This document shows, piece by piece, positions 19,966 through 22,504 of a stretch of DNA of 43,661 nucleotides. How positions within the stretch are numbered: the stretch's first letter is position 1; each line of letters begins with the position of its first letter. Source of the stretch: Candidatus Bathyarchaeia archaeon (GTDB taxonomy: Archaea > Thermoproteota > Bathyarchaeia > Bathyarchaeales > Bathycorpusculaceae). The position numbers were made by a program, and so were the translations under genes. The stretch is from the NCBI GenBank assembly GCA_038883795.1, contig JAVZLK010000009.1, forward strand, positions 1 through 43,661, written 5' to 3'. A model generated the notes under the pieces. That model searched no databases. It had not been told where the DNA came from and worked only from the letters and a program-made list of their open reading frames with translations.

Positions 19966-20039
19966 GCGCTGGCGGATAATTTTCCGCTGGGATGTAGCCC
20001 CCTAAAGGCTGAACCATAAACTAATGGAGAGGTGAAAAT
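19966..20039 (+). ncRNA. Candidate structured rpl15e 5' leader
   Basis: Hairpin CTGGCGGA-TAATTT-TCCGCTGG, then GATGT-AGCC-CCCTAAA-GGCT-GAACC, then CCAT-AAACTA-ATGG abutting SD GAGGTGA. Confidence 0.6.
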
Positions 20040-20618
20040 ATGGCGTATAAATATATTGCAGAAGCATGGGCTAAACCAGAAAAATCCTTCGTAGACGAGT
20101 TAATGCGTCAAAGACTAATAGAGTGGCGCAGACAGCCAGCTATAACCCGCGTGGAAAAACCCACGAGGCTGGATAGAGCTAGAAAATTAGGCTACAAAGC
20201 AAAACAGGGCTTCATCATAGTTCGGGTCCGCGTTAGAAGAGGTGGACTGCGAAAAAAGAGGCCTAAGGCTGGAAGACGACCAAAGCGTATGGGTGTTAAA
20301 AAGTTTAAGCCAGCCAAAAGCATGCGCTTAATCGCTGAAGAAAAAGCGGCAAGAAAGTTTCCAAACCTTGAAGTTTTAAACTCTTACTGGGTAGGCGAAG
20401 ACGGACGCTCAAAATGGTTCGAAGTCATAATGGTCGACCCAAACCACCCAGCAATAGCAGCAGACAAAGACATAAACTGGATAACTCAAAAACAGCATCG
20501 CGGAAGAGTTTTCAGAGGCTTAACAAGCGCAGGCAAAAAAGTTAGAGGCTTAAGAACGAAGGGGCGTGGAGCAGAAAAACTTAGACCAAGCAGAAAAGCT
20601 GCCAGAGGAGAAAAATAA
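20040..20618 (+). CDS. rpl15e: 50S ribosomal protein L15e
   Basis: [43 protein letters not shown]. Confidence 0.98.
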
Positions 20619-20621
20619 CGC

Positions 20622-20861
20622 ATGATTATGGCGCTTAAGCCAAAAGTTTTCAAAAAGGGCGGAAAACAGCGTTATGGAAAGGGTTTCAGCCGCGAAGAAC
20701 TTAAAAAGGCTGGAATAAGCCTAAAAGAAGCCTTAAAATCTGGAATTCCAGTGGATTTCAGGCGAAAAACAGTTCACATGGAAAATGTTAAGGCCGTTAA
20801 AGCCTTCATAGAAAAAGAGAAACCCAAGCCCAAAAAATCTAAGGGAAAATCTAAAAGTTAG
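20622..20861 (+). CDS. rpl13e: 50S ribosomal protein L13e (short archaeal form)
   Basis: R.GKGFS.EELKKAGI...A...GIPVD.RRKT...ENV core motif. Confidence 0.85.
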   Translation: MIMALKPKVFKKGGKQRYGKGFSREELKKAGISLKEALKSGIPVDFRRKTVHMENVKAVKAFIEKEKPKPKKSKGKSKS

Positions 20862-20892
20862 AGAATGCTTTAATGAAAATAGTGATGAGGTT

Positions 20893-21339
20893 TTGTCTTC
20901 TAAAATTCCAATAGGATACATTGACATAAGGGTTTTCGCCCACGCCACAGAAGAGGTAGATAAAGTTTTGAACGCTGTCCACAACCTCCTTCCAGCAGAA
21001 GTGGTTGACACAATCACTTTTAAAAGAACTGTTTTAACTGGACATCATGGAAACCCCATAACCCTTTTAGAAGCGAGAGTTAAAGATAAAAACGCCGTTC
21101 AAGCAGTTTTTAAGAAATTAGCCTCCAGTTTAAGCCCCTTAGACAAGAAGCTTTTACGAAATGAGATTAAACAGCATTTGGAAGGGGGAAACCTTTACAT
21201 TAGAATTGACAAACAATCAGCCTACCTAAATGAGGTTAAACTTTGCACAACAGACCCCATCCACTTCCGAATACACTTCCAAAAGCATAATCCAGAGGAA
21301 ATAATTGAAATCTGCAGAAAATTTGGGTTGCTACCATGA
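20893..21339 (+). CDS. COG1325 predicted RNA-binding protein (exosome superoperon)
   Basis: HATEEVDKV, GHHGNPI, LYIRIDKQSAY. Confidence 0.88.
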   Translation: MSSKIPIGYIDIRVFAHATEEVDKVLNAVHNLLPAEVVDTITFKRTVLTGHHGNPITLLEARVKDKNAVQAVFKKLASSLSPLDKKLLRNEIKQHLEGGNLYIRIDKQSAYLNEVKLCTTDPIHFRIHFQKHNPEEIIEICRKFGLLP

Positions 21340-22070
21340 AAAGAGTATACGCTGATTTGCATTTATGCCCAAACCTTAATGACTTGAAAAAAGTTGCTAA
21401 CATGATTAGTAAAGCCTCAAAGCTTGGATACAGCCTCATAGCCATAACTTTTTCATTAACCGCGAAGAAAGAAGAAATTGAAAAAATGCGAAACATGTGC
21501 GGAGAATACAAGATGGATATGGCTTCTAGAACAGACCTAAAACCCAGAACCCCAAAAGAGCTAATATACAGTCTAAGAAAGTTTAGAAGAAAATTTGAAA
21601 TAATTGCGGTAATTTGCGAATCCAAAACCATTGCGAGGCAAGCAGCAAAAGACCGCCGCGTAGATCTCCTAAACTTTCCGTCCCCTAATCCTCACCAAAG
21701 ATTTTTTGATAAGGCAGAAGCTGAATTGGCTTCGAAAGCTTTAGCATCCTTTGAAATTGACATAAAATCGCTCCTCACCTTAGAGGGTCCAGCGAGGGTT
21801 AGGCTTCTTTCGAGTTTGCGGAAAGAAACGGCAATTGCTCAAAAATTTCATGTACCAATAGTCATATCAAGCGGCGCTTCCGACGAATTTCTCATGCGAA
21901 AGCCAATGGATATGGCTTTTTTGGCTTCGCTCTTCGACTTGGACGAGGCATCAGCAATGGAGGCGGTTTCAAAAAATCCAATTCAAATCATCAAAAGAAA
22001 TAGGGAAAATCTCAGTCCAAAGTTTGTTGCGCCTGGAATAAAGATAGTTCGTAAGGGGAAGGATTGTTGA
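21336..22070 (+). CDS. rnp3: RNase P protein component 3 (Rpp30)
   Basis: PHP-like ADLH, RVDLL, PIVISSGA...MRKP; operon context. Confidence 0.88.
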   Translation: MKRVYADLHLCPNLNDLKKVANMISKASKLGYSLIAITFSLTAKKEEIEKMRNMCGEYKMDMASRTDLKPRTPKELIYSLRKFRRKFEIIAVICESKTIARQAAKDRRVDLLNFPSPNPHQRFFDKAEAELASKALASFEIDIKSLLTLEGPARVRLLSSLRKETAIAQKFHVPIVISSGASDEFLMRKPMDMAFLASLFDLDEASAMEAVSKNPIQIIKRNRENLSPKFVAPGIKIVRKGKDC

Positions 22071-22393
22071 AGAAAGTGAGGCGGCGCTATTTAGCCTTAA
22101 AAATAGATTCTAATGAAACTTTTAGCTCAAAAGATTTTATGGACGCTGTTTGGAACGCAATTTCAAAGCTTTATGGGGAATATGGTGCAAGCCAAACAGG
22201 CTTAGCCCTAATTGATTACGATATGGAGAAGGAGTTTGCTGTTTTACGTGCTGCGCATACGGCTGTTAAAATGGTTAGAACAGCCCTAGCATCAATAACA
22301 AAAATTGGAAATAAACCAGCAACTATTCATGTTTTAACGGTTTCTGGAACAATAAAAGCTCTTTACAAGAAATTGGAAAATACGCTTTTGTAG
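22064..22393 (+). CDS. rnp2: RNase P protein component 2 (Pop5/Rpp14)
   Basis: RRRYL, LYGEYGA, VSGTIKAL. Confidence 0.9.
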   Translation: MLKKVRRRYLALKIDSNETFSSKDFMDAVWNAISKLYGEYGASQTGLALIDYDMEKEFAVLRAAHTAVKMVRTALASITKIGNKPATIHVLTVSGTIKALYKKLENTLL

Positions 22394-22405
22394 AAAGTTT
22401 ATTTG
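22393..22405 (+). promoter_or_regulatory. BRE/TATA promoter of the C/D sRNA
   Basis: GAAAG-TTTATTTG about 25-30 nt upstream of GGGG at 22428. Confidence 0.6.
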
Positions 22406-22427
22406 ACAGTTTTCAGTTTTATACTTT

Positions 22428-22491
22428 GGGGAATGATGTAGCCGTCCCAGTCTGATTTATGCAGATGAGGAACTCATGACGGACAGACCCC
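22428..22491 (+). ncRNA. Box C/D guide sRNA (two predicted 23S rRNA guides)
   Basis: Terminal stem (TTT)GGGG/CCCC(AAA); box C ATGATGT 22433; D' CTGA 22452; C' CAGATGA 22462; D CAGA 22484; guides AGCCGTCCCAGT and GGAACTCATGACGGA. Confidence 0.85.
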
Positions 22492-22504
22492 AAAAACCTA
22501 ACAA

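Follow-up and report, generated by a model that had tools for sequence, protein, structure and literature searches.

The question raised by the short block at positions 22428–22491 of a bathyarchaeal contig is whether it encodes an RNA that guides methylation of 23S ribosomal RNA (rRNA), and on which nucleotides such a guide would act. The block lies on the plus strand of a stretch of 43,661 nucleotides (nt) from Candidatus Bathyarchaeia archaeon (assembly GCA_038883795.1, contig JAVZLK010000009.1, positions 1 to 43,661), here called the window, and coordinates given without a contig name refer to it. An earlier description made from the letters alone, the original prediction, had read the block as a box C/D small RNA (sRNA) with both guides aimed at the peptidyl-transferase centre (PTC). 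In archaeal C/D ribonucleoproteins (RNPs), L7Ae binds a kink-turn and a K-loop, Nop5 and fibrillarin assemble on the RNA, and the 2′-OH opposite the fifth guide position is methylated.

In this study, we compared the block with rRNA sequences, related genomes and known RNA families. In all probability, 22428–22491 (plus strand) is a 64-nt archaeal box C/D sRNA gene whose product is predicted to guide methylation at two sites of 23S rRNA. Well formed and conserved, it belongs to a known class of RNA and does not represent a new kind.

Anatomy of the sRNA gene

Read from its 5′ end, the gene has the order GGGG-A-AUGAUGU-AGCCGUCCCAGU-CUGA-UUUAUGCAG-AUGAGGA-ACUCAUGACGGA-CAGA-CCCC, with a single A between the GGGG stem and the C box. 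Guide nucleotides (N1–N12) are counted from the adjacent D′ or D box. Positions in 23S rRNA follow E. coli numbering, which was verified on rrlH (CUGGGGCGG begins at 2248 and CGUCGUGAG at 2591). The elements are the following:

22395–22406, plus strand: promoter, AAAG followed by the TATA-like TTTATTTG, about 22–33 nt upstream of the first G of the sRNA
22428–22491, plus strand: whole box C/D sRNA gene, 64 nt, delimited by sequence, homologues, alignment and contig block ends
22428–22431, plus strand: 5′ half of the terminal stem, GGGG, pairing with 22488–22491
22433–22439, plus strand: C box AUGAUGU, six of seven positions of the consensus RUGAUGA; UGAUG is invariant among homologues
22440–22451, plus strand: D′ guide AGCCGUCCCAGU, 12 nt; N1–N11 pair with 23S 2247–2257 (P loop, helix 80), with G·U at N1 and N7; N5 is C22447, opposite G2251
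22452–22455, plus strand: D′ box CUGA; relatives show the variants CGGA and CCGA
22456–22464, plus strand: D′–C′ loop UUUAUGCAG, 9 nt, variable in length and sequence among homologues
22465–22471, plus strand: C′ box AUGAGGA, six of seven consensus positions, kept as AUGANGA, with a 12-nt spacer to the D box
22472–22483, plus strand: D guide ACUCAUGACGGA, 12 nt; N2–N11 pair with 23S 2590–2599 (helix 93 5′ strand and GUGA loop), with G·U at N7; N5 is A22479, opposite U2593
22484–22487, plus strand: D box CAGA, a variant of CUGA, found in 52 of 53 two-guide matches in the class
22488–22491, plus strand: 3′ half of the terminal stem, CCCC, from sequence, fold and alignment

The block thereby has C and D boxes with the capacity for tandem G·A pairs, internal D′ and C′ boxes and spacers of about 12 nt. 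Both spacers, from C to D′ and from C′ to D, measure 12 nt in the sequence and in an explicit box scanner (four boxes, 11–13-nt spacers, at most two mismatches). The terminal stem has 4 base pairs (bp); in other lineages it differs but stays complementary, as in the Baldrarchaeum copy with GCGGA/UCCGC. Each element named in the original prediction, that is the terminal stem and the C, D′, C′ and D boxes, was found in its place, including CAGA as D box, which is conserved and adjoins the stem. CGGA at 22480–22483 was also considered as D box and was rejected, being neither conserved among relatives nor adjacent to the stem, unlike CAGA.

Promoter and gene boundaries

For the promoter comparison, 61 distinct upstream regions of the family were aligned on the first G of the terminal stem. 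The A/T fraction at −29 to −25 was 0.80, 1.00, 0.98, 0.93 and 0.90, compared with about 0.3–0.7 nearby, and TATA-like words were most frequent at −31 to −28. The region from −31 to −25 is the usual TATA position in archaea. In the window, the TATA-like box occupies 22399–22406. Because a TATA box sits at the usual archaeal distance throughout the family, the comparison supports a putative promoter belonging to the sRNA itself, with a predicted transcript start near 22428. The promoter claimed in the original prediction is in this way recovered as an A/T-rich position fixed across the family.

The sRNA gene lies within a 111-nt gap, 34 nt 3′ of the stop codon of the last gene of a cluster and before a convergent rhomboid gene. 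Contigs from hot-spring metagenomes pile up on 22416–22503, and because their loose ends fall at 22423–22429 and 22491–22496, many co-occurring relatives have just this block in common. The pile-up marks the limits of the gene and not its transcription; two of the runs bear a metatranscriptomic label but are probably DNA.

Pairing of the guides with 23S rRNA

Target sites were searched in the whole 23S and 16S rRNAs of five relatives having both. In five of five, the top site of the D′ guide was the P loop with N5 on G2251, and that of the D guide was helix 93 with N5 on U2593; each site scored 9.5, with runners-up at 8.5 or less. The duplexes comprise 11 bp with two G·U pairs in the P loop and 10 bp with one G·U pair in helix 93, and N5 forms C:G and A:U, respectively. 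Guides of this class are expected to show no fewer than 9–10 bp and a Watson–Crick pair at the fifth position, and both duplexes do so. Pairwise alignment maps the sites of one relative (G012) to G2251 and U2593. Both 12-nt target strings are identical in all nine complete bathyarchaeal 23S genes; one 23S locus (L008), with a run of 100 N and neither target motif, was counted as uninformative. The calculated duplex energies are −23.7 kcal/mol at 37 °C and −13.3 kcal/mol at 70 °C for the D′ guide, and −17.8 and −8.8 kcal/mol for the D guide at the same temperatures.

The alignment of guides to 23S rRNA, which the original prediction had proposed for the organism's own rRNA, leaves both of its assignments standing on the rRNA of relatives with the N5 register intact, and methylation of U2593 itself remains a prediction. 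Its single G·U pair in the D duplex was borne out, and the G·U pairs at N7 and N1 of the D′ duplex had escaped it. It had placed the two targets about 340 nt apart; the distance is 342 nt in E. coli numbering and 345 nt in G012. G2251 and U2593 are both at the ribosomal P site.

Folded alone, helix 93 (−11.1 kcal/mol, z = −2.33) takes the expected hairpin form, in which GUGA is the loop and one A is bulged; the local fold of the P-loop segment was uninformative (z = −0.44). The two rRNA target segments are also complementary to each other. In the 23S rRNA of relatives (e.g. locus L002), the 3′ half of the P loop (2252–2256) is complementary to the 5′ strand of helix 93 (2590–2594), and the duplex of both segments has −9.3 kcal/mol compared with −9.2 kcal/mol for the helix 93 hairpin at 37 °C. 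This mutual complementarity may be due to chance. It is the reason why a 5-bp pairing between the two guides is possible, as in the minimum-free-energy fold of the 64-mer; in our judgement this guide–guide pairing is incidental.

Conservation and chance controls

With a query of 141 nt, a homologue was found at an expectation value (E) < 1e-8 in 20 of 31 genomes, the own genome counted. Nineteen aligned copies show conservation of the boxes and of both guides, with a variable loop and variable flanks. The box scanner reported five sites in the 2.18-Mb genome, none in the reversed genome and one in each of two shuffled genomes.

A pattern consisting of C box, D′ guide and D′ box (the D′ module) was present in 110 of 401 sampled genomes of the class, and a backwards control pattern in none. 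By family, it was found in 84 of 103 (f1), 17 of 18 (f7), 4 of 11 (f6) and 0 of 25 (f11) genomes, with no match in the other orders sampled. The block as a whole is kept across one order of Bathyarchaeia. Both guides together occurred in 53 of the 401 genomes, among them 38 of 103 in f1, 5 of 11 in f6, 5 of 18 in f7 and one genome of another order. In a collection of species genomes, 57 of the 80 matches listed carry archaeal titles, 45 of these with Bathyarchaeota-type names. The 23 bacterial matches among those listed are without any sRNA architecture, and their number fits the approximately 35 chance matches expected for the pattern in 596 Gb.

Variation of the two guides

The helix-93 guide was compared in 38 family members with a 12-nt D spacer, which have 23 distinct guides. 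Therein, N4 and N5 are invariant, and N3, N6, N7, N8 and N10 show one change each. At N9 and N11, it is mostly U that takes the place of C opposite G, by which the pair is kept, and at N1 and N12, outside the predicted duplex, all four bases occur. Because variation concentrates at N1 and N12, the constrained span of this guide appears to be exactly the predicted 10-bp duplex (N2–N11). An Asgard genome, Baldrarchaeum, has GCGA and not GUGA as the helix-93 loop of its own 23S rRNA, and the guide of its sRNA, CUCGCGACG, carries the matching changes. The D box UUGA of this copy would set C2591, not U2593, at the fifth position.

The P-loop D′ guide is the stable module of the family. The U opposite G2253 (N7 of the D′ guide, window 22445) is found in every archaeal match listed, including DPANN, Asgard and Thermoprotei-labelled copies, and C at this place occurs only among the chance bacterial matches. 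The D guide also has its G·U pair at N7. Other D guides accompany the P-loop guide in Micrarchaeota, Iainarchaeum and one genome labelled Nitrososphaerota; the micrarchaeotal D guide forms 9 bp with a 23S site that lies some 190 nt 3′ of the P loop. Three genomes, one labelled "Thermoprotei", one of Jordarchaeia and one bathyarchaeal, combine the P-loop guide with a helix-93-type guide and have the canonical CUGA box. Also, we observed a branch (L040, L111 and about 27 other loci) that keeps the stem, the boxes, CAGA and the P-loop guide, with D guides that are A/U-rich and variable.

The CAGA D box

CAGA is a lineage-wide variant. It keeps the GA for the sheared pairs, and the usual U·U is replaced by U22437–A22485, with U22437 belonging to the C box. 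Statements on cited papers refer, here and below, to those parts of each source that were available. A Watson–Crick pair at the position after the G·A pairs prevents folding of a kink-turn in metal ions alone (PMC4382518). By analogy, the Watson–Crick pair of the CAGA box would fit a kink-turn that folds only upon binding of L7Ae.

Protein machinery and proposed mechanism

The host genome encodes the proteins of a C/D RNP, all scoring above the Pfam cut-offs. Fibrillarin (326 bits) and Nop5 (265 bits) are adjacent on the minus strand of contig C18 (5292–5972 and 6070–6744), and L7Ae is encoded at C2:139048–139320 (99 bits).

From the architecture, an RNA of about 64 nt would be transcribed from its own TATA promoter. 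A kink-turn would arise from its C and D boxes, with GGGG/CCCC as the closing stem, and a K-loop from D′ and C′. L7Ae would bind both, and a Nop5 dimer with two fibrillarins would assemble. The D′ guide would then pair with 2247–2257, the whole P-loop hairpin (helix 80), with G2251 opposite the fifth nucleotide from the D′ box, and the D guide with 2590–2599, the 5′ strand of helix 93 and the GUGA tetraloop, with U2593 at the fifth position. Following the known mechanism of the family, fibrillarin would 2′-O-methylate G2251 and U2593. Because the mature RNA has hairpins at both target stretches, the RNP would be expected to act on unfolded pre-23S rRNA, before these hairpins form or are buried, and to keep both open while bound. 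A chaperone-like effect would be intrinsic to holding two PTC elements open in this way. The original prediction had suggested a folding-chaperone role by inference; this role is still conjectural, the one factual basis of the idea being that the RNP, while bound, would prevent both target hairpins.

Alternative explanations

Several points weigh against a two-site methylation guide. It is known from sequence alone, with transcription, RNP assembly and methylation all inferred. The host assembly is 87% complete in 81 contigs, has a partial 16S rRNA only and lacks the 23S rRNA, so that the pairing is seen on relatives only. The D box is non-canonical (CAGA, not CUGA), each duplex has a G·U pair at N7, and 5 of the 23 distinct helix-93 guides have A at N2, opposite C2590. 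The fold energy of the 64-mer is no better than that of shuffled sequences (z = −1.02; 27 of 200 shuffles equal or surpass it). Rfam called no C/D family in the window at gathering thresholds, with only sub-threshold C/D matches at a permissive threshold; snoPyro_CD reached 18.7 bits against a gathering threshold of 45 (E = 0.13), a model that was above its own cut-off in 0 of 14 control genomes and is unusable for membership or counting outside Pyrococcus. Shuffled guides reach the score of the D′ guide in 32 of 1000 trials, and that of the D guide in 8 of 1000; each match is modest singly, and the two jointly would be unlikely to arise by chance. Finally, 57 of the 110 genomes with the D′ module are without the helix-93 guide and carry a different D guide, and in two such genomes with complete 23S rRNA the replacement has no convincing 23S target (scores 7.0 and 5.5). 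Because about half of the family has another guide in place of the helix-93 guide, targeting of helix 93 is, as judged from these sequences, dispensable among close kin.

Some weight is due to a real C/D sRNA in which the D′ guide (P loop, Gm2251) works alone and the D guide has little activity, is vestigial or binds helix 93 but leaves it unmethylated. Such an RNA would account for a D′ guide kept far more widely than its partner (110 compared with 53 of 401 genomes) and joined to different D guides in DPANN and other lineages, and for the A/U-rich D guides of the members in G420 and G421, which are without convincing 23S target; the replacement of the consensus U of the D box by A and the failure of our literature search to return a record of U2593 methylation point the same way. 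However, the helix-93 guides that are kept are constrained exactly over N2–N11, with N4 and N5 invariant in 23 of 23, which fits a methylation register over mere binding. Also, the Baldrarchaeum guide changes in step with its target, and CAGA retains the GA for sheared pairs and occurs where the guide is well conserved, too. We therefore consider a D′ guide acting alone unlikely. Far less probable is a cis element of the neighbouring genes, for example an L7Ae-binding kink-turn or a 3′-end element of the eL15–eL13–Rpp30–Pop5 operon, with fortuitous complementarity to rRNA. The position directly after Pop5 and before the convergent rhomboid gene (each present in 14 of 20 loci) would suit such an element, and archaeal messenger RNAs (mRNAs) have regulatory kink-turns that bind L7Ae (PMC5539422, PMC6298567), but the sRNA has its own TATA box at a fixed distance, and other lineages as well as community contigs have this RNA between unrelated flanks. 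Moreover, both guides match conserved rRNA sites in the N5 register, and the footprint of constraint equals the duplex. Hardly any credence is due to guides acting on other RNAs, namely transfer RNA (tRNA), 16S rRNA or mRNA. A 16S site near position 126 forms eight Watson–Crick pairs and one G·U pair with the D′ guide in G012 (score 7.5), but it is not conserved (5.5 in G018) and was rejected as a target. No comparable match was found among the 50 tRNAs of the host, where the top scores of 7.5 and 6.5 include mismatches, and tRNA was rejected in view of the 9.5 reached by the 23S sites in all relatives scanned.

Comparison with known systems

Guides for the position of G2251 (alignment position G2520) were predicted in three of seven archaea, including sR13 and sR45 of M. 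kandleri, and helices 90–93 were named a methylation hotspot (PMC4644070). As far as can be compared by description only, the archaeal sRNAs of Dennis et al. 2015 (PMC4644070) share with the present sRNA the RNA class, the RNP and the P-loop target nucleotide; unlike them, the present sRNA has a CAGA D box and a partner guide for U2593. With its targets 342 nt apart, it falls outside the double guides of that source, whose targets are within 100 nt. A P-loop 2′-O-methylguanosine (Gm) was seen by cryo-electron microscopy in two Euryarchaeota, T. kodakarensis (Gm2353, next to the 7-methylguanosine m7G2354; PMC12124282) and M. acetivorans (Gm2260; PMC12605026). The modification is the same and the nucleotide equivalent; there it was observed, with no guide RNA named for it, and here it is predicted from the guide. 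The half of the sRNA that targets G2251 is thus ordinary, because Gm at this position is already documented in archaea.

In eukaryotes, the equivalent nucleotide is modified under guidance of small nucleolar RNAs in Arabidopsis (25S Gm2620), yeast (Gm2619) and human (Gm4196) (PMC11542601). The Tetrahymena RNA TtnuCD11 (RF02288), with the same target nucleotide, has nearly the same guide, with the consensus UAGCCGCCCCAGU compared with UAGCCGUCCCAGU here. The present RNA does not belong to this family, with 15 bits compared with a gathering threshold of 70, and the C box and the first guide alone align. Unlike the eukaryotic P-loop guide, every archaeal copy places U and not C opposite G2253. 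The likeness may be forced by the common target. Full-length alignment of stem, boxes and spacing was obtained with the Pyrococcus family snoPyro_CD (RF00095; model positions 1–58), in which the sRNA is not filed at 18.7 compared with 45 bits. In E. coli, Gm2251 is made by RlmB, a stand-alone SPOUT methyltransferase (PMC12605026, PMC11542601). Nucleotide and chemistry are the same, but RlmB is a protein-only enzyme without guide RNA and is unrelated to the C/D RNP.

For the U2593 half, a full-text literature search for U2593 with 23S, judged in part from titles and abstracts, returned no record of a 2′-O-methyl group; one match was a 3-methyluridine (m3U) in fungal numbering. None of the equivalent alignment positions 2866–2868 appears in the main text of PMC4644070, whose supplementary site list, outside the search, might hold one. 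2′-O-methyluridine (Um) at 2593 is therefore put forward as an unverified prediction from the guide sequence. A search on Bathyarchaeota and box sRNA found no published C/D sRNA for Bathyarchaeia, and the top eight results of a broader search included no paper on the class.

Genomic context and further features

The sRNA directly follows a cluster of genes for ribosomal proteins and RNase P subunits:

20040–22393, plus strand: genes for eL15, eL13, an RNA-binding protein of PF01877 and the RNase P subunits Rpp30 and Pop5

The order Rpp30–Pop5–sRNA–rhomboid, with rhomboid convergent, is kept across the family and in parts of the order. In G018 (contig C1:47204–51219; L005, L015), the sRNA lies about 880 nt past the 3′ end of 23S rRNA with the rhomboid gene between them, an arrangement not seen in the other loci compared. 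In the nearly closed genome G012, 16S rRNA (at 1,372,047) and 23S rRNA (at 545,363) are on the same contig C1 (L002, L032). Because they are far apart there, the rRNA genes of the family are probably unlinked. At 19972–20020 (plus strand), upstream of eL15, the window contains a match to the Rfam eL15-Euryarchaeota leader (40.8 bits; gathering threshold 33.7). The family of this leader may be wider than its name suggests, because the relatives of the host are Bathyarchaeia and not Euryarchaeota.

Two further C/D sRNA candidates were noted in the host genome (G000). The first, on contig C7:39540–39595 (minus strand), is well formed; its stem is GGAC/GUCC, and CUGA serves as D′ box as well as D box. 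Its D′ guide matches the 23S rRNA of relatives perfectly over 10 bp with N5 on C2498, the site of the bacterial 2′-O-methylcytidine Cm2498, and the pairing site of its D guide is near E. coli 2051. With the own genome counted, conservation of this sRNA extends to 18 of 31 genomes at E ≤ 1e-5. The second candidate, on contig C2:132033–132082 (plus strand), is the best snoPyro_CD match of the genome (25.1 bits) and lies about 7 kb from the L7Ae gene. Its guides pair with the 23S rRNA of G012 at 2570 (score 9.5) and 2076 (9.0). Hyperthermophiles typically have dozens of C/D sRNAs. With about five scanner sites genome-wide, from a scanner uncalibrated on a known repertoire, the C/D repertoire of the host, a hot-spring archaeon, is tentatively regarded as small.

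Implications

The findings leave the known mechanism of C/D RNPs unchanged. Of interest here are a CAGA box found lineage-wide, a U that never varies opposite G2253, Um2593 as a prediction, a second guide with a modular history and a C/D repertoire of this order that appears small and focused on the PTC. Because CAGA puts a Watson–Crick pair at the kink-turn position that governs folding, this family would be a natural test case for protein-dependent kink-turn folding.

The sRNA may also be the bathyarchaeal form of an old TACK/Asgard sRNA, whose fixed pairing of P-loop and helix-93 guides holds helices 80 and 93 apart during assembly of the PTC. We regard this as a doubtful, though conceivable, reading; it is consistent with the nearly equal energies of the rRNA–rRNA duplex and the helix 93 hairpin (−9.3 and −9.2 kcal/mol), with the invariant U opposite G2253 and with what seems to be only a handful of C/D sRNAs in this order, including one aimed at C2498. 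If true, the C/D system would have been reduced to a core set serving nucleotides of the catalytic centre that bacteria methylate with stand-alone enzymes.

For the uncultured and abundant Bathyarchaeia, the sRNA gives a concrete and testable guide of rRNA modification, by which Gm at a universally important P-loop nucleotide and Um2593 in helix 93 are predicted. Together with the sRNA for C2498, it suggests that RNA guides are used in this lineage at sites that bacteria modify with RlmB and RlmM. Such a use would bear on whether the modifications of the catalytic centre were inherited or reinvented.

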